DNA from: a plasmid
Sequence record: NZ_CP143948.1
Length of the DNA stretch: 64,000 nt
Reading direction: 5' to 3' (one strand)
The notes beneath the pieces were generated by a model. The model had not been told where the DNA came from. It saw only the letters and a list, made by a program, of their open reading frames with translations, and did no database searches. Position 1 is the first letter of the stretch, and each line of letters begins with the position of its first letter. Shown here one piece after another: positions 10,256-60,099 of the stretch. Both the position numbers and the translations under genes were made by a program.

Positions 10256-11005
10256 CTAATTCTGACAATTTAATATTCTTTTTGCACATTCTATCTGTTC
10301 CTTTGTAGGAGGCTCCACCCCTTCAAGCTGATATGGTATACCAAGCTCCTTCCACTTGAACACCCCAAGTGTGTGGTACGGCAGCACCTCAACCCTTTCC
10401 ACCGTTTTAAGTGTGTCGATAAACTCTCTAAGCTGCTTTAAATATCTCTCATCCGTGGTGATTCCAGGCACAAGCACATGACGTATCCACATTTTTTTAC
10501 CGTTTTTTGAGAGATATTGTGCCATATCAAGGATATTCTTATTTGTCTGTCCCGTAAGCTTTTTGTGCTCCTCGTCATCTATATGCTTGATGTCCAGCAT
10601 GAAGAGATCTGTATATTTCATCAGCTCATTAAATTTGCCGAAAAACGGTTCTTCCACGGTAAACGGATTTCCTGATGTGTCAAGGCATGTGTTTACACCT
10701 TTTTCCTTTGCAAACTTAAATAGCTCTGTGACAAAGTCTATCTGCAAAAGTGCTTCACCTCCGCTTACTGTGATGCCACCTGTTTGCTTCCAGTACGCTT
10801 TATAGCGCATGGCGGTCTTTAGCACCTCCTGCGGTGTCATCAGCTTTGCACCGTCATTTTCGCCGCATTTGGCCCATGTGTCCGGGTTATGGCAGTATTT
10901 ACAGCGCATATTGCAGCCCTTCAAAAATACTATATATCTCACTCCCGGGCCGTCGGCTGAGCCGAAGCTTTCTACCGAGTGTACTCTTCCTAGTGTTTCT
11001 CCCAT
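10256..11005 (-). CDS. pflA: Pyruvate formate-lyase activating enzyme (glycyl-radical enzyme activase, radical SAM)
   Basis: CNMRCKYCHNPDTW CxxxCxxC radical-SAM motif. About 249 aa, typical for PflA. Confidence 0.9.
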   Translation of the reverse strand: MGETLGRVHSVESFGSADGPGVRYIVFLKGCNMRCKYCHNPDTWAKCGENDGAKLMTPQEVLKTAMRYKAYWKQTGGITVSGGEALLQIDFVTELFKFAKEKGVNTCLDTSGNPFTVEEPFFGKFNELMKYTDLFMLDIKHIDDEEHKKLTGQTNKNILDMAQYLSKNGKKMWIRHVLVPGITTDERYLKQLREFIDTLKTVERVEVLPYHTLGVFKWKELGIPYQLEGVEPPTKEQIECAKRILNCQN

Positions 11006-11199
11006 GTTTTACCTGCCACTCAAAATGTGTTCAAATATACTCAAACACATCGAGAAATTAAAGTCCTTGCGGATACTTCTTACTGCTTCGATGTGTATGC
11101 TTTGGCGATTGTAAACAATACGCTACTCACAAGTTCGTGTACACTCCACAGTCGTAAATTCCTGCGATAGCCCGCAGTACATACTTACGTTTGCGTTTA

Positions 11200-12360
11200 T
11201 TATGCAACTTCGTAAGTTAAAGCATCTCTTAGATTAAGAGCAGCATTGAAATCCCTATCCTCAACATAACCACAATCACAACGATATATTCTATCTGAAA
11301 GCTTCAAATCTTTCTTGATAGCACCACAGCAATGACATATTTTGGATGATGGATACCATCTGTCTACGACTCTTAATTCAATACCATTTTCATCACATTT
11401 TGCTTTAAGCTTGGTTCTAAATTCATAGAACTTCTGTGACGCAACAGCTTTTGAAAGATGTCTGTTCTTCATCATTCCTGATACATTCAAATTTTCAATA
11501 GTTATATAAGATGGCTTGGTTTTCACTATCTCAGCTATTGATTTATTGATATAATCAGTACGGATATTATCTATTTTATGATGAAGTCTTTGTACTTTGA
11601 GCTTTTGCTTTTGTATATTCTTTTGAGTGGACTCTCCTTTCTTTAAGTTCTCATATTTTCGTGAGAGACATCTTTGTTCTCTACGCAGTTTCTTTTCCAA
11701 TTTTTTAATTCTTGTTGACTTATTGATATTTTTATAAGTTTTACCATTGGAAACAATCGCCAAGTCTTTTAAACCCAAGTCAATTCCTATACCACCATTG
11801 CTATTATTAGCAATCTTAACGTTGGGAATTTCTACAAGAACTGACACATAGTATCTGTCTGCTTTGACGGATACTGTACCGCTTTTGATTTTCCATCCGT
11901 CTTTAGTTGTTGGTATATAACCTTTTTCTTTAATGCGTACCCAACCTAAAGTGGGTATGTTCAGCCTATGTCTCTCACATCTACAGTCTTTAGTATTGTT
12001 CTTTACGAAATACATTTTTACATCAGATTTACCTTTCTTTTTGAAATTAGGAAAAGCGCTTTGATGTTTAAAAAATCTTGTAAATGCAGTACATCCATCT
12101 TCAATAGACTTTTTTACAGCTTTTGAATATGCTTCTTTAATCCATATTTTATCAGGATTATTAGGAATATACTCATTATTAAGCCATACGCTGAAACTCT
12201 TGCCAGTCATAAACTTTTCACCGTTATCATATAAAGTTTTGTTGTGACCGAGATAGAAGTTATAGACGTACCTACAAGTGCCAATAGTCTTGTTAATCTT
12301 GATTTTTTGCTCAATCGTCGGATTTATTTCCGTCTTGAAGCTCTTTAGCAATTTCCTCAT
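11200..12360 (-). CDS. tnpB: TnpB (IS605 OrfB / IS1341-type RNA-guided endonuclease), 386 aa
   Basis: RuvC-I-like GIDLGLKDLA, C-terminal zinc finger CHCCGAIKKDLKLSDRIYRCDCGYVEDRDFNAALNL, K/R-rich central region. Confidence 0.85.
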   Translation of the reverse strand: MRKLLKSFKTEINPTIEQKIKINKTIGTCRYVYNFYLGHNKTLYDNGEKFMTGKSFSVWLNNEYIPNNPDKIWIKEAYSKAVKKSIEDGCTAFTRFFKHQSAFPNFKKKGKSDVKMYFVKNNTKDCRCERHRLNIPTLGWVRIKEKGYIPTTKDGWKIKSGTVSVKADRYYVSVLVEIPNVKIANNSNGGIGIDLGLKDLAIVSNGKTYKNINKSTRIKKLEKKLRREQRCLSRKYENLKKGESTQKNIQKQKLKVQRLHHKIDNIRTDYINKSIAEIVKTKPSYITIENLNVSGMMKNRHLSKAVASQKFYEFRTKLKAKCDENGIELRVVDRWYPSSKICHCCGAIKKDLKLSDRIYRCDCGYVEDRDFNAALNLRDALTYEVA

Positions 12361-12961
12361 CCCTTTCTATTTGTTTTTCATACTTACGAAGTCCATACAA
12401 CCTGCAAGAGAATACATGAAGTATAGAAACAATATCCTGTACGAGTTCTTCCTGTGGTGATAGTTCTTCGTTGTTCACTACCACAATGCTTGTATTAAAC
12501 TTCATACAGAATTTTTCAAACCAATCGTAACCAAATCTGATAAATCTATCTTTATGAGTTACTATTATGGTTTTTATTTTCTGTTCCATTACTTCATTTA
12601 ATAATTCATTCCACTTTTTACGATTGTAATTAAGACCACTTCCATAATCCTCAATACACTGGTCTATAATAATACCTTTAGCATTACAAAACTGTCGCAA
12701 AAATGCAACTTGATTCTGTAAATCATCTTTTTGATTTCTTGTAGACACTCTGGCATAAATAACTACCTGACGTTTATCATTTTCAATATTTATGCCTTTG
12801 AATTGAAGGTACTGGTCATAGGTATAATAACGCCTATCAGTTGGAGTTCGATTTGCCTTTAAAGTTCCTTCTCTGTCCCAGCGTTGCAATGTCTTAACAG
12901 ACACACCTAACAGTTCAGCAAAATCTTTTGGCTTATAATTTGTGATATTTGATGTATTCAT
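12311..12961 (-). CDS. tnpA: IS607-family TnpA serine recombinase (MerR-like HTH N-terminus plus resolvase catalytic domain)
   Basis: FAELLGVSVKTLQRWDREG HTH; VVIYARVSTRNQKDDLQNQ catalytic serine motif. 216 aa. Confidence 0.85.
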   Translation of the reverse strand: MNTSNITNYKPKDFAELLGVSVKTLQRWDREGTLKANRTPTDRRYYTYDQYLQFKGINIENDKRQVVIYARVSTRNQKDDLQNQVAFLRQFCNAKGIIIDQCIEDYGSGLNYNRKKWNELLNEVMEQKIKTIIVTHKDRFIRFGYDWFEKFCMKFNTSIVVVNNEELSPQEELVQDIVSILHVFSCRLYGLRKYEKQIERDEEIAKELQDGNKSDD

Positions 12962-13283
12962 AATAATTTACTCCTTTGAGTATATTTAAACACATTTAAT
13001 CACATTTAACAATATATTCAATTACTTATTTTCTCCTCCTAGGTTGTTGCTACTACTTTTATTTTATGGTACGGAATTTTCGGCAACCCGCCAGCCGGGA
13101 CTTTTCAATGCTCAGGTTCTTCGGGCTAAGAGGCTGTATGAATTATGATTTTGGTTTTCTATGCTTGACGCGACCGGCTTTTACACACCTTCCGAAAATT
13201 CCTTACGCTGTGGTGTTATTTAGAAAATCAGAATATGCAGGCACTTGGCCTGCACATTCTGGAATGTTGGATATTTTTTTATA

Positions 13284-15536
13284 TTACATTCTCTCGTGGC
13301 ATGTACGTGAGATTACATCGAGCTGCTGCTCTCTTGTGAGGTCGATGAACTTAACTGCGTATCCTGATACTCGGATTGTGAAGTTTGCGTACTCCTCCTT
13401 CTCAGGATGCTCCATTGCATCGATGAGCTTCTCTTTACCGAATACGTTTACATTGAGGTGATGTGCACCCTGATCGAAGTATCCGTCCATTACGTTTACA
13501 AGGTTGTCGATTCTCTCTCCCTCGTTGTTTCCGAGTGCTCCCGGATTGATGGTCTGTGTATTTGAGATTCCATCAAGCGCCCACTCATATGGAAGCTTTG
13601 TGAGTGAGTTTAAGGATGCGAGAAGTCCGTTCTGCTCTGCGCCGTATGATGGGTTTGCTCCCGGTGAGAGTGGCTCTCCGGCTTTACGTCCGTCAGGCAT
13701 TGCTCCTGTAGCTTTTCCGTATACTACGTTTGATGTAATTGTAAGGATTGATGTTGTAGGCTCTGAATCACGGTATGTGTGATGCTTCTTTAACTTGTCC
13801 ATGAATGTCTTAAGAAGCCATACACCGATTTCGTCCGCGCGGTCATCATCGTTTCCGTATTTAGGGAACTCTCCCTCGATTTCGAAATCCTTTGCCAGTC
13901 CGCTCTCGTCACGGACTACTTTAACCTTTGCATATTTGATTGCTGAAAGAGAATCGATTACGTGTGAGAATCCTGCGATTCCTGTTGCAAATGTTCTCTT
14001 TAAGTCTGTATCCATGAGTGCAAGCTCTGCTGCCTCATAGTAGTATTTGTCATGCATGTACTGGATAAGGTTTAATGTATTTACATAGATGTCTACTAAC
14101 CAGTCCATCATCTTGTCGTATTTCGCCATTACCTCGTCATAGTCAAGGTACTCTGCTGTGATAGGTGCGTAGTTTGGTCCTACCTGCTCACCTGATTTTT
14201 CATCAACACCACCGTTGATAGCGTAAAGGAGACATTTTGCAAGGTTTGCACGTGCTCCGAAGAACTGCATCTCTTTACCTGTCTGTGTTGCAGATACACA
14301 GCAGCAGATTGCATAATCATCGCCCCATACAGGCTTCATTGCGTCATCGTTCTCATACTGGATTGAGCTTGTCTCAATTGAGATGCGGGCTGCATAATCC
14401 TTGAAGGTCTGAGGAAGCTTTGATGAGTAGAATACTGTGAGGTTTGGCTCCGGTGCAGGTCCCATGTTCTCTAATGTATGGAGGAAACGGAAGTCTGTCT
14501 TTGTAACCATTGAACGTCCGTCCACACCTGTTCCTGCCACGTCAAGTGTTGCCCATACAGGATCACCTGAGAATAACTGGTTGTATGAAGGAATACGTGC
14601 AAATTTAACCATACGAAGCTTCATTGTAAAATGGTCGATGAGCTCCTGTGCTTCCTGCTCTGTGAGGATGCCCTTGTCCATATCTCTCTTGATGTAAATG
14701 TCAAGGAATGTAGATACACGTCCTACTGACATTGCTGCACCATTCTGTGTCTTGATTGCTGCAAGGTATCCGAAGTATAACCACTGAACTGCCTCTTTTG
14801 CGTTTGTTGCAGGTCTTGAGATATCATATCCGTAAATCTCTGCAAGCTTCTTCATATCCTCAAGACATTTAATCTGCTCTGCGATTTCCTCTCTTAAACG
14901 GATAACATCATCTGTCATCTGTCCACAGCCACAGTTTGCCTTATCCTTCTTTTTCTCTTCGATGAGATAATCAAGTCCGTATAATGCTACACGACGGTAA
15001 TCGCCTACGATACGTCCACGGCCGTATGTGTCAGGAAGACCTGTAAGGATCTTTGCATGACGAACCTTCATCATCTCAGGTGTGTATGCATCGAATACTG
15101 CTGTGTTGTGTGTCTTATGATATTTTGTGAAAATTTCCTTGAGCTTGTCGCTTACATTGTAACCATATGTCTCAGCAGCCTGTACTGCCATCTTGATTCC
15201 ACCGTAAGGCATGAATGCTCTCTTTAACGGCTTATCTGTCTGAAGACCTACAATCTGCTCGAGGTCCTTTAATGACTCATCTATATATCCAGGGCCGTAA
15301 GCTGTAATTCCTGTTACAACCTCTGTCTCCATGTCAAGAACTCCGCCCTTGGCACGCTCCTCTTTCTGTAATTTCTGAAGCGCATCCCACAGCTTGTTTG
15401 TAGCATCTGTCGGATCAGCTAAAAAGCTCTCATCTCCGTCGTATGGAGTGTAGTTGTCCTGAATAAACTGACGGACGTTGATTTCCTCTTTCCAAAGACG
15501 TCCTTCAAATCCATCCCACTCTTTCATCTCTATCAT
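13284..15536 (-). CDS. pflB: Pyruvate formate-lyase (formate C-acetyltransferase), glycyl radical enzyme
   Basis: 750 aa. C-terminal glycyl-radical motif RVSGYAVKF and the active-site CC pair (AICCCVS). Confidence 0.95.
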
Positions 15537-15856
15537 TGTAATATCCTCCTTAAAATGTATGAATGTTACTTCGTTTGATTAGTTTTGTTTAACTGTGGTT
15601 AGTATATACTTACTACAGTATTTTTGTCAATATCCCTGTTGTTTCTTTTGAGATACATTCCCTGGTTATTTACACGACCATGGCTGATTTTATAATCAAA
15701 AAGAGCCAACTGTCCGGGTTTATCGCCCAGACGGTCGGCTCTTATTTGTTATATTTCATGTGGTTATTCCACTTATCCGTCAGTCATATAACACGTTCAT
15801 AGTAGACTATTTTTCTCAATAAAGCAATAGTGTTTTAGAACTATTTTTATTCTTTT

Positions 15857-16906
15857 CTATTCCGCACGAACCGCCCAGCGCATCTTCGTGGACCTGGCAC
15901 GTCCGTTCTGAGCACATTCCTGTGCTGATGGACGAATCACATCCTTGGAATAGTCGCTGTATATTCCTGCTTTATATCCTGCCTTGAGTGCCTTTTTGAC
16001 CAGCTTGTCCTCTCCTGAATGGAAGGTAAGAATGGCAGCTCTTCCACCGGGCTTTAATGCTCCCGGGAGCTTTTCCATAAACTCATATAGCACTTCAAAC
16101 TCATGGTTTACGTCTATGCGAAGCGCCTGGAATGTGCGCTGACAGGTCTTTTTGATTATGTCCTTCTTATCCTTTTCAGGGAGAAAATCGAGTGTCTGCT
16201 CTATAATGTGACGAAGCTTTGTGGTCGTATCTATGCGGTTGCCCTTCCTGATCTCGTCTGTGATTGCCTTTGCAAGCTCCTCGCAATACGGCTCATCTGA
16301 GTTCTCATAGAGCATACCCGAAAGCTCCTCACGGGATATATTATCAAGCCGCTCTGCTGCACTGATACCGGCATTTGGATTAAGACGCAGATCCAGCGGT
16401 CCATCCACCTTAAACGAAAAACCACGCTCAGGATTATCTATCTGCATTGATGAAACTCCCAGATCGGCAAGTATGAAATCAAAGCCTCCTACTTCCTTTG
16501 CAATCTCATCTATTGTGCAGAAGTTCTGAAGCTTTATGGTGAGAATATCCTCTCCAAAACCTGCTTCCGCGAGACGCTTTTTTGTCTTTTCAGACTCGAT
16601 TGGGTCAACATCTGTAGCAAACATATGTCCCTGTCCTTCAAGCTTTTCAAGCATTGCCCTTGTGTGGCCACCGTATCCGAGTGTGGCATCAAAGCCTGTC
16701 TGTCCCGGCTTTATGTCCAGAAAATCTATGATTTCTTTTACCATTATGGATATGTGCATGCCCGCAGGGGTATTTCCCTTGCTGATGACATGCTCAATTG
16801 TATCCTTGTATTTCTCCGGATTTAATTCCTTGTATTTTTCCTCAAATTTTTTGGGATATTTTCCGCTATAGTGCACGCGGCGCTTGTGCTGTTTTTCTTC
16901 GCTCAT
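15857..16906 (-). CDS. RsmH/MraW-family 16S rRNA (cytosine1402-N4)-methyltransferase paralog with a ~40-aa N-terminal extension
   Basis: DLGVSSMQID, RGFSF, DGPLDLRL, RTFQALRIDVN, GGRAAILTFHSGEDK, NGRARSTKMR. All match RsmH signature blocks. Terminator hairpin at ~15700-15750. Confidence 0.75.
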   Translation of the reverse strand: MSEEKQHKRRVHYSGKYPKKFEEKYKELNPEKYKDTIEHVISKGNTPAGMHISIMVKEIIDFLDIKPGQTGFDATLGYGGHTRAMLEKLEGQGHMFATDVDPIESEKTKKRLAEAGFGEDILTIKLQNFCTIDEIAKEVGGFDFILADLGVSSMQIDNPERGFSFKVDGPLDLRLNPNAGISAAERLDNISREELSGMLYENSDEPYCEELAKAITDEIRKGNRIDTTTKLRHIIEQTLDFLPEKDKKDIIKKTCQRTFQALRIDVNHEFEVLYEFMEKLPGALKPGGRAAILTFHSGEDKLVKKALKAGYKAGIYSDYSKDVIRPSAQECAQNGRARSTKMRWAVRAE

Positions 16907-17003
16907 TTTATGCTCCGTTTCATTCTGAGTTAGAACTGTTATGCTGACTTTTGCTACAGTATAACTTTTATTTTACTTTTCCGCAAGATAATGACTTACA
17001 TTC

Positions 17004-18389
17004 CTATACCATCTGCACGAGCCACACGTCGCTTTTCACCATGAAGTATCCGATGACTACCTTTATCAGCTCTGTGGCCTGCACTAGGAAGTACACCGCT
17101 ACTATGCCAAGTGCTGTGTATTTGGCAAGCACAAATGCCACCGGCACCACTATCACCCACGTAAATACGGAGTCAAACAGAAATGTGACCAGTGTCTTGC
17201 CTCCTGAGCGGAGTGTGAAATACGACGAATGTGTAAATGCACAAAACGGCATAATTATCGCTGATACCGCTATGAAGCTTGTTGCGAGTGACTTGATTTC
17301 ATCTGTTGTGTTATATATCTGAGGGAAAAATCCGCCTACCAGAAGCATGACCGCCGCCATTACAGAACAGCAGAACACACTGAACACTATCATCTTGTTA
17401 TCCGCATCCTTTGCCTTTTCAAGCTCACCGGCTCCAAGATACTGCCCTACAACTATGCTGATGCATGCGCCAAGCTGTATAAACACGATATTGAAAAGGT
17501 TTGTTATCGTTGTCGCAATGTTTAAACCTGCGATTACCGAGAGTCCTCGTACTGAATAGCACTGTGTAACCGTTGTCATGCCTGCTGCCCATAAAAGCTC
17601 ATTGAGCATGAGTGGCAGTCCCTTGATGAATATAGTCTTAAACTCACCAAACGGCATTCCTATTCCTCTGTAAGCGCCCTCGAGATATCTGTTCTTATCC
17701 CTGTTTTTATGCGCCCACAGCACAACTATTATTGTCTCAATATATCGCGACATCACAGTGGCAATAGCGGCTCCCGCCACACCCAGCTTTGGTATCGGTC
17801 CTATTCCGAAGATGAGCAGAAAATCAAGCACCGCATTGCTTCCAACTGCTGCAAAGCTTGCAACCATCGGTACAAAAGTCTGTCCTGTTTCCTTTATGTT
17901 TGTCGCATAGGCCTGCGTCACCGCAAACGGTATGAGACCTATCATAACAATTTCCAGATATTCCTTTCCATATGCCAGTGCTACCTCCGTGGCACCGTTT
18001 CCTGCCGTATCTGTCAGATAAAGTGATATGAAACCTGTTCCGTTCGTGATAAACAGTGTCATCGCTATTGCTGTAACAAGCAGCGCTGCATACAGCTTGA
18101 ATCTGAAGGAATACATATGCCCTTTATGATTTCCCTTGCCAAAATACTGTGCTCCGAATATACTTGCCGCTGACACCGCCCCAAATACAGCCAGATTGTA
18201 CACAAATATGAGCTGGTTTACGATTGCTACTCCTGACATCTGCTCTGTACCAAGCTGTCCTACCATAATGTTGTCCAGAAAGCTTACCAGATTTGTGATT
18301 GCATTCTGGATTATCATTGGTATGGCCAGCATGAGATATCGCTTATAAAATGCTTTGTCTCCTATATATTTTTGTCTGAATTTATGCAT
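17004..18389 (-). CDS. MATE-family multidrug/oligosaccharidyl-lipid efflux transporter
   Basis: 461 aa and 12 TM. MATE-like N-terminus (YKRYLMLAIPMIIQNAITNLVSFLDNIMVGQLG). Confidence 0.85.
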   Translation of the reverse strand: MHKFRQKYIGDKAFYKRYLMLAIPMIIQNAITNLVSFLDNIMVGQLGTEQMSGVAIVNQLIFVYNLAVFGAVSAASIFGAQYFGKGNHKGHMYSFRFKLYAALLVTAIAMTLFITNGTGFISLYLTDTAGNGATEVALAYGKEYLEIVMIGLIPFAVTQAYATNIKETGQTFVPMVASFAAVGSNAVLDFLLIFGIGPIPKLGVAGAAIATVMSRYIETIIVVLWAHKNRDKNRYLEGAYRGIGMPFGEFKTIFIKGLPLMLNELLWAAGMTTVTQCYSVRGLSVIAGLNIATTITNLFNIVFIQLGACISIVVGQYLGAGELEKAKDADNKMIVFSVFCCSVMAAVMLLVGGFFPQIYNTTDEIKSLATSFIAVSAIIMPFCAFTHSSYFTLRSGGKTLVTFLFDSVFTWVIVVPVAFVLAKYTALGIVAVYFLVQATELIKVVIGYFMVKSDVWLVQMV

Positions 18390-18520
18390 GTTTGTCCCCC
18401 TTTCGATTTCTCCATGGTTCTTTCGTGCAATGTTACTATTTTACTACGTCAGACTTTATTTTTCAAATATTTTATGTGTTTTCCTTAATTTATTTTAGGA
18501 TTCAGAATTTTGTATCATAA

Positions 18521-18815
18521 TGGCCATGGGGCTGGGCGTAAGTCACAGAGTCCGGGCGGGCACGCCACACTCTCGCTTCCGCTACGCTTCGCAGCTAAGA
18601 TTCTGTACGAATTATGCCTTTGGGTTTTTCTATGCTTGACGAAACCGGCTTTTATGCGCCGTCCATGGCGCATAACGCCTTGCCCAGCCGTCCATGGCTG
18701 GGCATTTCTGGGTTTCATGGGCATAATTCTACAGCTTCTAAGCTGCTCCGCTATTCGCGTCCGCGAGGGTGCGACGTGCCCACCCGGACTCTGCGACTTA
18801 CGCCCCTTACGTTGT
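18521..18815. repeat. ~295-bp near-perfect palindrome (arms ~95 nt, ~85-90% complementary; ~90-nt CCATGG-rich centre); MITE-like element or long-hairpin RNA
   Basis: Left arm ggcgtaagtcacagagtccgggcgggcacgccacactctcgc...ctgtacgaattatgcc. The reverse complement of the right arm is ggcgtaagtcgcagagtccgggtgggcacgtcgcaccctcgc...ctgtagaattatgccc. Confidence 0.55.
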
Positions 18816-19019
18816 GGATGGGTTTAATTTTTATTGTATCTGCGTCCTATTATAAACGGCACCGGAAACTATTATATCGAAGCTATTGTATAATAACAGT
18901 ACTATTTTTCAATAATTAAAGCTCCCAACTGACAACACTATTTGTGCTGTCACTTGGGAGCTCTTAATTTAATTTTTTATTATAGTTTTACTTTTTATGT
19001 CAATATCCTGTTTATTTGT

Positions 19020-20531
19020 TTACTGCCGGTTCATATCCTGTGTTTCCTGATACTTTCTGATTACGAAAAACATGGTAGTTCCATCACCCTCTTTGCTGGT
19101 AGCCCATATCTTGCCGCCGTGATCCTCTATAATCTTCTTTACGATGGAAAGTCCTATGCCGCTGCCTCCGGTAGCCGAATTTCTCGACGCATCCGCTCTG
19201 TAAAATCTGTCAAAAATATATGGCATATCTCTCTGGTTGATTCCTCGTCCATTGTCCTCGATTTCAACCTGTATGAAGTCACCAACATCATTTATCCTGA
19301 TATCTATATAGCTTTGTGTCTTGTTCATATACTTCACCGAATTGCCGACTATATTATTAATCACACGGCGAATCTGCTCCGGATCAGCAATGATAAGCAC
19401 GTTGCTATCCACATGATTCTCATATGAAAGCCTGATATTTTTTGCCTCAAGATCGAGTCCTATTTCCTCAACACAGTCGTTAAAATAATCTGTGACATTT
19501 ATCTTCGCAAAATTATATGGAATCCTGTTCGTATCAATCTTCGAGTAAAGTGTCAGCTCATTAATGAGCTTATCCATATCGTTTGCCTTATTGTAAATGG
19601 TTCTGACGTATTTATCTACCTTTTCAGGGGTGTTTGCCACTCCGTCAAGTATGCCCTCGGCGTAGCCCTTTACCGCAGTAATAGGAGTCTTTAAATCATG
19701 CGCGATATTGCTGATTAACACTCTGTTTTCAGACTCATTCGTCACCTTTTCCTCGGCATTTTTCTTGAGGCGCGCACGCATCTGCTCAAACGCAGTACAC
19801 AGCTCGCCAATCTCTCCGTCGCTCGGGCTCGTCTCAAGCTCAAAATCCAGATTGCCATCCTTGATATTTTCAGCGGCAATACGCAGCCTCTCTATCGGTG
19901 TGATGATACTCCTGTATATCCACACTATAAGCATGGCAGCCGTAGTAAGAAGTATCAATACAAGCGCAAATGCTCCCTCTATCAAAACAGTCCTGACCTC
20001 AGGGATCACGCACGCGGTTGATGTCACTATGTAAAGACTCGCCTCGTCACCATCACTGTCACGAAAATTAAGCTGCTTTATGAGCACCTTGTCATCACTG
20101 TCCATATAGCTGCTCACATCAGAGCTGCTCTGCTTATTGGATATTCGCGGAAGCTTTCTCAAAATATCATCATTGTCAATTCCACCATTGAAAATGAGCT
20201 CTCCTTCACTTTTCACTATGAGATATGAATACTTCTTCTCCAGCTTCTTATTTATCTTAGTCAGATAATCACTATCAAGAAGCCTGGATGGTTCTATGAG
20301 CGATGTCTTCTCGAGCTCATCATATGTGCGCCCTGTCACCTTGTTCAGAAACTGTACTGTGTCAGTGAGCGCGAGCATGCCCGCATCCTCCATGCCATAT
20401 GTCTTGTTTATGGCCTTTAGCTGAATCTTATTGAAACCCACAAGCACTATACTGGTGAGCACAACAGGCACAAAAATAATTATGCAGAATGATATAGCAA
20501 GTTTTGTTTTTATCTTCATAGTATTCTCCAT
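19020..20531 (-). CDS. Sensor histidine kinase (TM-extracellular domain-TM-HAMP-HisKA-HATPase_c)
   Basis: H-box ISNIAHDLKTPITA; N/G boxes (VINNIVGNSVKYM, DNGRGI, GSGIGLSIV). Confidence 0.85.
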   Translation of the reverse strand: MENTMKIKTKLAISFCIIIFVPVVLTSIVLVGFNKIQLKAINKTYGMEDAGMLALTDTVQFLNKVTGRTYDELEKTSLIEPSRLLDSDYLTKINKKLEKKYSYLIVKSEGELIFNGGIDNDDILRKLPRISNKQSSSDVSSYMDSDDKVLIKQLNFRDSDGDEASLYIVTSTACVIPEVRTVLIEGAFALVLILLTTAAMLIVWIYRSIITPIERLRIAAENIKDGNLDFELETSPSDGEIGELCTAFEQMRARLKKNAEEKVTNESENRVLISNIAHDLKTPITAVKGYAEGILDGVANTPEKVDKYVRTIYNKANDMDKLINELTLYSKIDTNRIPYNFAKINVTDYFNDCVEEIGLDLEAKNIRLSYENHVDSNVLIIADPEQIRRVINNIVGNSVKYMNKTQSYIDIRINDVGDFIQVEIEDNGRGINQRDMPYIFDRFYRADASRNSATGGSGIGLSIVKKIIEDHGGKIWATSKEGDGTTMFFVIRKYQETQDMNRQ

Positions 20532-21518: not shown

Positions 21519-22700
21519 TTAGAGATACTTCTTGAGGTCCTCAACCTTATCAAGTGCCTCCCAAGGCAGCTTGATATCTGTACGTCCGAAGTGTCCGTAT
21601 GCTGCTGTCTGGCGGTAGATAGGTCTTCTGAGGTCAAGCATCTTGATGATTCCGGCCGGACGAAGGTCGAAATTCTCCCTTACGATTTCAACGATTCTGT
21701 CATCTGCAAGCTTTCCTGTGCCGAATGTATCAACCATGATAGATGTTGGCTGTGCAACACCGATAGCATATGAAAGCTGAATCTCACACCTGTCAGCAAA
21801 TCCTGCTGCTACAAGGTTCTTTGCTACGTAACGTGCTGCATATGCTGCTGAACGGTCTACCTTTGTACAGTCCTTTCCTGAGAAAGCTCCGCCGCCGTGA
21901 CGTGCATATCCACCGTAGGTGTCTACGATAATCTTACGACCGGTGAGACCTGCATCTCCGTGTGGTCCACCTATTACGAAACGTCCTGTAGGATTGATAA
22001 AGAACTTTGTCTCATCGTCAATCATATCCTTTGGAAGAATTGGATCAAATACATATTTCTTGATGTCCTCATGGATCTGCTCCTGGGTAACATCCTCGTC
22101 GTGCTGTGTTGAAAGTACAACTGCCTCAAGTCTTACCGGCTTTCCTGCCTCATCATACTCTACTGAAACCTGTGTCTTTCCGTCCGGACGAAGGTATGTA
22201 AGTGTGCCGTCTTTTCTAACCTTTGTGAGCTGGAATGCAAGCTTGTGAGCGAGTGCGATTGGGTATGGCATGTACTCCTCAGTCTCATTTGTAGCATATC
22301 CAAACATCATTCCCTGATCTCCGGCTCCGGTGTCGAGGTTGTCTGTAAGGTCGCCCTCTTTTGCCTCGAGTGCCTTGTCAACTCCCATGGCGATATCAGC
22401 AGACTGCTTGTCGATTGAAACCATTACTGCACATGAGTTTCCGTCGAGTCCCTTCTTTCCGTCATCATATCCGATCTCAAGTGCTGTTTTTCTGACGATT
22501 GCAGGAATATCAAGCTGTGCCTTTGTGGTAATCTCTCCTGTTACAAGGATGAAGCCTGTACAGCTTGCTGTCTCACATGCGACACGGCTCATCGGGTCCT
22601 GCTGTATGCATGCATCAAGGATGGCATCTGATACTGCATCGCAGAGCTTATCCGGATGTCCCTCAGTTACTGATTCTGATGTAAATAATAATTTCTCCAT
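21519..22700 (-). CDS. metK: S-adenosylmethionine synthetase
   Basis: [19 protein letters not shown] and related MetK signature motifs. 393 aa. Confidence 0.95.
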
Positions 22701-22744: not shown

Positions 22745-22900
22745 CAATAAAAAACCACTTACTGCAAATAAGTGGATTAAAATTAAGATAATAAAAATCC
22801 TCTTATTGTTCGATTACTCGCTCAGGTTGGCACCTTCCTGTTTTCTAACGGGGTTGCCGTGACTTCATAGATCCTTTGTATCTCCATCACTCTGAATAAG
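22745..22900 (-). ncRNA. SAM-I (S-box) riboswitch with an intrinsic-terminator expression platform, in the metK leader
   Basis: The minus strand reads CTCTTATTCAGAGTGATGGAGATACAAAGGATCTATGAAGTCACGGCAACC...GGTGCCAACCTGAGCGAG...AATAAGAG. This has the P1 (CTTAT/ATAAG) pairing, the GGTGCCAA motif and the kink-turn region. It is followed by CCACTTATTTGCAGTAAGTGG plus a T-run (22745-22776). Confidence 0.75.
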
Positions 22901-23149
22901 AGAAGTTACAATATAGAATTTTTCAAATCTCTGTCAGCTATATTACTACCACATGATATATATGTCAAGTATCATTTTCGATACAGATTTATCAATAATC
23001 CATTTTCGATACCCTATTCATTATTTATAAGCTATTTTATGCAATTATTCTTTCTTCCTTTATTGACTTTCATAATTTTTGTAATTATACTTAAATTTGT
23101 ATTTATAGTACTAAACACACAATATCAAAATAAATTTTTGGAGTAACTC

Positions 23150-59684: not shown

Positions 59685-60099
59685 AAAAAAAGTCGCCTCC
59701 TTTTCGCACTTTTAACTTCAGTACGACAAGCGGTGACTGTACACATCTCCGTGTGTGTCCTGTGGACTTTCACACGTTGTTTCTACATTTTGTAGACCAT
59801 ATCTGTTCTGTACAGTGACTTGCCGTCAGTTTCCTAACTTGACATTCGCTCCGCCGAATTCTCTGTCTCATGGACAGTAACTTCAAACTTCATAGCTATC
59901 ATGCCACAGCAAGTGATATTATACATGACGTTTACAATAATTGCAATACTTTTTTCAAAAAAAATTTATTTTTTTATTTCGGATAATATTCCATTGAAAA
60001 ATTACACTTTTGCACGTATATTATTATAGAAGAAACACGATTAAATGCAAGCAACGTGTAGTTTATTTTTACACGCAGATAAGAAAGGAATATAAACAT

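Follow-up and report, generated by a model that had tools for sequence, protein, structure and literature searches.

The question raised by this locus is what kind of element forms the long palindrome between a MatE-family gene (17004–18389) and a HAMP/HisKA/HATPase_c histidine kinase gene (19020–20531), both on the minus strand. It lies in a 64,000-nucleotide stretch of the plasmid record NZ_CP143948.1, hereafter the window. A reading made from the letters alone (the sequence-only reading) had correctly placed a ~295-bp palindrome between these two genes, suggested a MITE-like element or a very long hairpin RNA, and held that no annotated gene type explains it. This last claim fails. In an Rfam scan of the window, the palindrome's core (18584–18753, minus strand) matches positions 1–168 of the 168 positions of RF01731, TwoAYGGAY, at 152.8 bits (gathering score 43, E = 1.6e-28). 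The palindrome is one copy of TwoAYGGAY, a family already catalogued, and its striking 43-bp outer arms are the portion of the closing helix, P1, that lies beyond the Rfam model.

TwoAYGGAY was described in 2010 from human-gut metagenomes, Clostridiales and Gammaproteobacteria. Its discoverers scored it as ‘probably an RNA, not cis-regulatory’ and reported P1 as ‘often very large’, ‘e.g. 24 base pairs’ (Weinberg et al., 2010; PMC2864571). Rfam carries it with the type label ‘Cis-reg’, and a 2025 preprint calls the motif ‘relatively unexplored’, its function unknown. The window copy shares with the described family the two AYGGAY-loop hairpins, the large closing P1, a full-length covariance-model match, a host among gut Clostridia, several copies per genome and no attachment to a particular gene class. 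It differs in a P1 that runs ~43 bp past the model, to ~71 pairs against ‘e.g. 24 base pairs’, and in nothing essential.

The complete hairpin occupies 18534–18805 on the minus strand (272 nt) and is supported by folding, the Rfam match and our own covariance model, which scores it at 174.4 bits. The inverted repeat and fold of the sequence-only reading are borne out; its limits of 18521–18815 are not. The two outer arms, found by a repeat finder, are 43 nt each (18534–18576 and 18763–18805) and 88% complementary at the DNA level. Folding both strands, as had been suggested, gives −185.1 kcal/mol for the minus-strand RNA and −175.5 kcal/mol for the plus-strand RNA. Shuffles of the minus strand average −101.4 ± 5.7 kcal/mol (z = −14.7), and 0 of 100 reach the observed energy. 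The very long hairpin RNA that had been envisaged is a single 272-nt fold. The GC excess also holds, at 0.51–0.59 inside the element against 0.27–0.39 in its flanks. The mirror-image ORFs 18510–18827 (plus) and 18515–18724 (minus) both contain CPPGLCDLRP; we rejected them as coding sequence and agree that they are artefacts of the palindrome. A small ORF starting at the ATG of the CCATGG loops was also rejected. Its frame is not conserved, because the spacing of the loops can be 29 or 30 nt and some copies lack AUG in loop 1.

Within the core, the two inner palindromes that had been noticed were found at 18682–18703 and 18654–18673, each centred on GTCCAT (AUGGAC on the minus strand, at 18690–18695 and 18661–18666). 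The repeat finder also returned a 12-nt direct repeat, GCCGTCCATGGC, with starts at 18658 and 18687, 29 nt apart. On the minus strand, hairpin 1 (18682–18703) has an 8-bp stem, GCCCAGCC/GGCUGGGC, and an AUGGAC hexaloop closed by a C-G pair. Hairpin 2 (18647–18679) presents GCC-AUGGAC-GGC on top of an extended stem. Together with P1 they form a three-way junction, whose motif CGGUUUCGUCA (18637–18647, minus strand) has its CGG...CGUCA bases identical in 21 of 21 aligned sequences.

A search for exact pattern matches, run on one genome per species, yielded 57 loci, 21 of which were used to build our covariance model. All loci in low-GC Lachnospiraceae and in related Clostridia were confirmed by the model, which rejected as chance the pattern matches in GC-rich actinobacteria and proteobacteria. 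Across 45 homologues, core positions are paired in 94.6% of cells; shuffling lowers this to 72.0%, and sliding the partners to 44% or less. Both sides have changed in 29 of 37 core pairs, and none of 500 shuffles reached the observed values. The C-G closing pair of loop 1 is present in 45 of 45 homologues, and the three GCC/GGC pairs of hairpin 2 in 45, 43 and 45 of 45. The GCCAUGGANGGC of hairpin 2 holds in 21 of 21 aligned sequences, and GGA is invariant in both loops of the aligned homologues. Position 2 of loop 1 can be U, C, A or G, and the conserved loop is therefore ANGGAY.

The multi-copy expectation of the sequence-only reading was right. All copy numbers are lower bounds: at least 11 copies on 10 loci in an Agathobacter isolate, at least 9 in an Agathobacter metagenome-assembled genome (MAG), and one to several in MAGs of Lachnospira, Roseburia, Lachnobacterium and an Acutalibacteraceae. 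The window itself is 96–98% identical to Agathobacter loci over 13277–17969, which places its host in the A. rectalis (E. rectale) group. Paralogues within one genome are ~76–87% identical in the core, and orthologues keep the same syntenic positions across genomes. Every complete copy has 30–58 bp of near-perfect pairing beyond the Rfam model and a total length of ~240–300 nt. Arm complementarity is thus kept in orthologous and paralogous copies alike. Because the element is multi-copy and its arms stay complementary, it is not the single-copy hairpin with unconserved arms against which the sequence-only reading had guarded.

Some copies occur in unusual arrangements. Divergent, head-to-head pairs are found at six loci (L055, 3945–4690; L004; L013; L024, 5790–6345; L021; L047). 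In the L024 pair the helix bases are ~10 nt apart and there is therefore no room for separate promoters. At L019 (~1489–1760), a copy without its 5′ half is followed by five tandem repeats of GCCCGTACTCAAA, and at L029 (~270–570) a duplicated 5′ arm (CCACAGCGTAAGGGA...CACACGTA, twice) precedes the element.

The outer part of P1 behaves differently from the core. In the window copy, this outer helix is ~43–45 bp, and only its pairing is conserved; the inner part of P1 is conserved in sequence. Its 5′ arm (18763–18805, minus strand), which lies beyond the Rfam model, and its 3′ arm (18534–18576, minus strand) were both located by the repeat finder. Comparison across copies shows the arms to be copy-specific, and among alleles they display G·U intermediates and compensated pairs. 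A copy's own arms have a median complementarity score of 30.5, against ~6–6.5 for arms taken from different copies (95th percentile 9). Orthologues whose cores differ by 1–3% have outer arms that diverge more and are still paired, and one orthologue pair carries mirrored 2-nt indels in its outer arms. In the comparisons of the window copy with L045 and of L010 with L056, the core differs by 11–13% and the arms by ~50%, with 11–14 compensated pairs. The arms have no match elsewhere in the window or in the related loci except in their own alleles.

Many copies share a motif at the helix boundary, CCACA(G/A)CGUAAGG on the 5′ side and CC-GUA(C/U) on the 3′ side (the window copy, L007, L010, L029, L030, L041, L045, L056, L013, L017 and L051). 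GUAAG often occurs twice in the 5′ motif, ~10 nt apart, and the two sides can pair as GUAAGG/CCGUAC with one A·G mismatch. The motif could be a processing or start site.

Which strand is the RNA? We compared 10 distinct full-length alleles of the window locus. The 26 pairs of inner P1 are invariant in them, and 14 of 45 outer-helix pairs vary. Non-Watson–Crick states in the outer helix are minus-strand G·U in 28 cells at 12 sites and A·C in 4 cells, each a singleton. The full path can be followed at two pairs (C-G/U·G/U-A and A-U/G·U/G-C), and the L080 allele is a perfect Watson–Crick palindrome. Such a bias would arise if pairing were under selection in the RNA, and equally if mutation of the non-template strand were linked to transcription. 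Whichever its source, the minus strand is, on the evidence of these alleles, the sense strand. The outer arms of paralogues, taken as single representatives, contrast with the allele series: they have 48 G·U and 51 A·C (25 and 35 when made non-redundant), and hence no strand bias.

The element is variable among strains. We surveyed 17 same-species contigs, including the window, chosen by an identical MATE or kinase protein, and found the element intact in 5. Alignments define a block of ~417 nt (18498–18914, minus strand) made of a leader, the hairpin and a 36-nt tail; it is missing in 10 of the 17 contigs, seven of them aligned and three judged from spacer length. L065 has lost the core alone, between GCGAA repeats, and L063 has lost the hairpin and kept the tail. 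Where the element is missing, an unrelated 11-nt filler, GTATTTTTTAT, takes its place, and there is no clean empty site. In a leader-anchored metagenome scan, L081 and L083 have hairpin 1 deleted between the two 12-nt repeats. Strain variation is loss by deletion at short repeats rather than insertion, because the intermediate alleles (L063, L065 and L081) are internal deletions at such repeats. The window copy is dispensable.

Two further metagenome alleles, L078 and L084, share the leader with the window locus and then continue with different sequence, which in L084 resembles another paralogue in its 3′ half; this reflects either recombination between copies or chimeric metagenome assembly. 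A 21-nt indel (…ATAACAGTTAGATATTAGAAT…) at ~18975–18985, in the spacer between the kinase stop codon and the terminator, varies independently of the TwoAYGGAY block.

Candidate transcription signals lie around the element. Just after the kinase stop codon, the repeat finder located a 19-bp hairpin followed by UUUAAUUAUU (18920–18962, minus strand). It is conserved whether or not a strain has the element and is probably the terminator of the upstream operon, and so the upstream limit of the RNA gene. A consensus scan gave two minus-strand promoter-like sites. TTGAAA-16-TACAAT (18885–18912) stands at the start of the variable block, ~80 nt upstream of the helix. TTGAAA-17-TAAAAT (18438–18466) lies between the element and the MATE start codon and is retained in all alleles, including those of strains that lack the element. 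A terminator scan of 18300–19100 returned none; the sequence 3′ of the helix is AGCCCCAUGGCC, with no U-tract, and the TwoAYGGAY hairpin was rejected as an intrinsic terminator on that ground. Across copies, no consistent promoter at a fixed distance from the helix and no consistent terminator were found. Copies run with or against the genes beside them about equally often, and these genes are housekeeping genes unrelated to one another. Because orientation is mixed, neighbours are unrelated and the MATE promoter-like site stays intact without the element, action in trans is favoured over action in cis, with the same evenly balanced confidence that we give below to the decoy role of which it is part.

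What might the RNA bind? Both loops read C-ANGGAN-G, and the conserved bases (C, A, GGA and G) are identical in all aligned homologues; Psychromonas members of the family have ACAUGGAUGU in both loops. A third AAGGAG lies between the hairpins in some copies and is absent from the window copy. The SELEX consensus of CsrA is reportedly RUACARGGAUGU, and the RsmE–hcnA structure is said to give (A/U)CANGGANG(U/A). Within the family, the loops vary at precisely those positions that are N in the CsrA consensus. The Rfam scan assigns RF01731 to clan CL00106, which we take to be the Csr/Rsm clan. In Firmicutes the classic CsrA target is flagellin, whose translation CsrA controls, and to our knowledge the known CsrA antagonist there is a protein, FliW, and not an RNA. 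Two strong CsrA-motif matches in TwoAYGGAY have been published, together with the proposal of CsrA sequestration in Clostridia and validation described as ‘in progress’ (Gardner and Eldai, 2015; PMC4333381). In E. rectale, Roseburia and relatives, csrA sits in the flgM-csrA motility locus (PMC3720852, PMC7278147), and the immotile ‘ErEurope’ subspecies is described as having lost its motility operons (PMC7278147); neither csrA nor fliW was found within the 64-kb window or 0.6 Mb of related loci.

A CsrA decoy is the best-supported mechanism that we can infer from these sequence features. The TwoAYGGAY RNA would be transcribed off the minus strand as a unit of its own, between the kinase-operon terminator and the MATE promoter. 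It folds into a rod in which the ~71-bp P1 leads through the three-way junction to two C-G-closed ANGGAN hexaloops, 29 nt apart. One CsrA dimer would clamp both loops, which is the most likely mode of binding given that the loop corresponds to the CsrA/RsmE high-affinity element; the 29-nt spacing suits one dimer. As one of at least 9–11 paralogues per Agathobacter genome, the RNA would act in trans as a decoy that titrates CsrA off its mRNA targets. The long P1 buries both RNA ends in duplex and, more speculatively, probably confers nuclease resistance or offers a processing site for a double-strand-specific enzyme (RNase III).

The Csr/Rsm decoy sRNAs of Gammaproteobacteria (CsrB, CsrC and RsmX/Y/Z) likewise present A(N)GGA in C-G-closed hairpin loops, with adjacent hairpins spaced such that one CsrA/RsmE dimer can clamp two loops. 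They carry ~5–22 sites and are encoded by one to three genes, whereas TwoAYGGAY has two sites and many paralogous genes; it also differs in its rod-like 70-bp closing helix, and its CsrA binding is putative. The decoy role does not explain P1, because known CsrA decoys have many GGA sites and no 70-bp helix.

Overall, a minus-strand TwoAYGGAY RNA gene whose product titrates CsrA in trans is our best explanation, and we regard it as about equally likely to be right or wrong; that the RNA is transcribed, binds CsrA and acts as a decoy, and what P1 does, we infer. The analysis itself establishes the family to which the element belongs, its fold with the covariation, its strand and copy number, that it bears no mobility signatures and that the window copy is dispensable. 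Several observations count against it: the want of a fixed-distance promoter and of a U-tract, the L024 copies only ~10 nt apart, the strand-symmetric paralogue arms, and a window copy that is absent or broken in many strains. Our confidence goes no higher mainly because a preprint may assign the family another function (‘Coevolutionary mining of prokaryotic non-coding elements with a genome language model’, 24 September 2026, 10.64898/2026.09.22.753630). By term counts, TwoAYGGAY appears in its abstract and 56 times in its text. That text mentions reverse transcriptase 14 times, cDNA 24, cryo-EM 4, defense 5, retron 2 and transposase once, and CsrA, flagell- and recombinase not at all.

Four other accounts of the element, together with a further proposal for its outer helix, have to be weighed against the CsrA decoy. 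Spread by transposition as a non-autonomous, MITE-like element would fit a multi-copy, dispersed and palindromic sequence that differs in presence among strains and at whose copies assemblies break (L005, L050). Intergenic repeats such as REP/BIME and ERIC of enterobacteria and BOX/RUP of streptococci share these assembly breaks and strain variability and are likewise multi-copy, intergenic, relatively GC-rich and hairpin-forming. Those repeats conserve the sequence of their ends or of the entire unit; TwoAYGGAY conserves only that of its internal structured core, and its ends are unique to each copy (median 6 across copies against 30.5 for own arms). This argues against transposition, since a transposase would need shared ends. 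The check for target-site duplications proposed by the sequence-only reading came back negative: none flanks the element, and where the element is absent there is the unrelated filler or a partial internal deletion, as in the intermediate alleles. The window and the ~4 kb around each of 44 related loci contained no ORF for a transposase or a reverse transcriptase and no protein that recurs, and the paralogues within a genome are old, with orthologous positions kept. With no shared terminal repeats, target-site duplications or nearby transposase, the MITE-like reading is not sustained, and we consider it very improbable. It is just as improbable that the palindrome yields no RNA and works purely as DNA, as a cruciform or single-stranded hairpin that serves replication, recombination or the binding of proteins. 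The strand-symmetric mismatches of the paralogue arms, the mirrored indels, the perfect palindrome of L080 and a plus-strand fold nearly as good as the minus-strand one all speak for it. Against it, the two strands are not symmetric in the conserved unpaired loops and junction, CCATGG is not constant in loop 1 (CAAGGAC, CACGGAT or CAGGGAC in other copies), and the alleles of the window locus favour minus-strand G·U by 28 cells to 4. A role in cis, as a stabiliser, read-through barrier or 5′-UTR regulator of adjacent transcripts of the kind proposed for REP/BIME/ERIC, is unlikely to a lesser degree. Copies are always intergenic, the hairpin is very stable, Rfam labels it accordingly, and the element often follows an upstream terminator and ends 30–60 nt before a same-strand ribosome-binding site or start (L007 before pflA, L023, L017, L010). 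Evenly split orientations, unrelated neighbour functions, the discoverers' score and the absence of a U-tract after the helix point the other way. The MATE gene keeps its own promoter-like site and its own leader in strains lacking the element, which argues against cis regulation, and a mere barrier needs no invariant three-way junction and loops.

A real RNA with another partner or mechanism is the alternative to which we give some weight, while still doubting it. The ANGGAN loops would then not be recognised by CsrA, and the RNA would serve as template or scaffold to some protein encoded elsewhere in the genome, such as a reverse transcriptase, or would self-assemble as a structural RNA. The word counts of the preprint favour this, as does the long, fast-evolving P1 with its mirrored indels, which the decoy role leaves unexplained. 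A scan for reverse-transcriptase motifs detected no YxDD-type ORF in the window or the 44 loci, and clustering of 717 neighbouring ORFs gave generic ABC-transporter and kinase families only; a partner protein next to the element was rejected on these two results. The genes between the paired copies in L050 and L020 are, by Pfam, of fatty-acid synthesis, two-component and ABC types. The phrases ‘AYGGAY RT’, ‘AYGGAY-associated’ and ‘AYGGAY reverse transcriptase’ are absent from the preprint text, whose reverse-transcriptase and cDNA mentions may describe methods only. BLAST against phage and plasmid collections and a motif scan of viral contigs gave no match to the element, which also speaks against another partner; a foreign origin and spacer-like arms were rejected on these results and because the arms match, within the window and the loci, only their own alleles. 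A retron msr-msd RNA is similarly structured, with a long hairpin of variable sequence and its ends paired together, but TwoAYGGAY has no adjacent reverse transcriptase, no identified branching-G context and many copies per genome, and its long helix closes the RNA instead of forming a distal msd hairpin. The outer helix itself prompts another proposal. It diverges several-fold faster than the core with pairing almost perfect, and the outer 43–55 bp might be a specificity module (e.g. a double-stranded precursor of copy-specific small RNAs), or one arm might be copied from the other through a DNA hairpin or cDNA intermediate. We think this improbable; the preprint may describe such a self-templating or similar role.

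The window holds other elements. A degenerate second TwoAYGGAY copy (13070–13206, minus strand) lies between pflB (13284–15536) and pflA (10256–11005). Compared with the intact orthologue (L007, L035, L053), it has ~120 nt deleted, both AYGGAY hairpins included, and retains its 3′ half and the base of the 5′ arm with the boundary motif. Rfam scores it at 22.7 bits (E = 0.31), below threshold, and our own model at 28 bits (E = 0.002). Between this broken copy and pflA is an IS607-type insertion (~11025–13035, minus strand) with a MerR-HTH and serine-resolvase ORF (12311–12961) and a TnpB ORF (11200–12360; OrfB_IS605 and Cas12f1-like TNB domains). The insertion, which L007, L035 and L053 lack, displaces the pflA ribosome-binding region and is unrelated to the hairpin. 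A RAGATH-18 RNA (RF03064; 11080–11152, minus strand; 68.8 bits) lies ~50 nt past the stop codon of tnpB, at the place expected for the scaffold of a TnpB guide (omega/reRNA). Also on the minus strand are a ZMP/ZTP (pfl motif) riboswitch upstream of pflB (15718–15797), a SAM riboswitch (22800–22902) upstream of an S-adenosylmethionine synthetase gene (21519–22700) and an S10 ribosomal-protein leader (59820–59901).

The value of this result is mainly negative: an apparently unannotated palindrome is an Rfam family and not a new element. The hairpin belongs to a known RNA family with a published functional hypothesis, and what is new here is descriptive: the measured extent of P1, the copy-specific outer helix, the G·U allele series and the frequent loss among strains, together with the head-to-head pairs in some genomes and the degenerate second copy in the window. 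Few bacteria of the human gut are more abundant than Agathobacter rectalis (Eubacterium rectale), whose flagellin stimulates the immune system. If the outer helix were a specificity module or one arm were copied from the other, TwoAYGGAY would represent a novel type of palindromic RNA gene that templates itself, carried by bacteria abundant in the human gut. If instead these RNAs titrate CsrA, a family of at least 9–11 members would form a sizeable regulatory layer.
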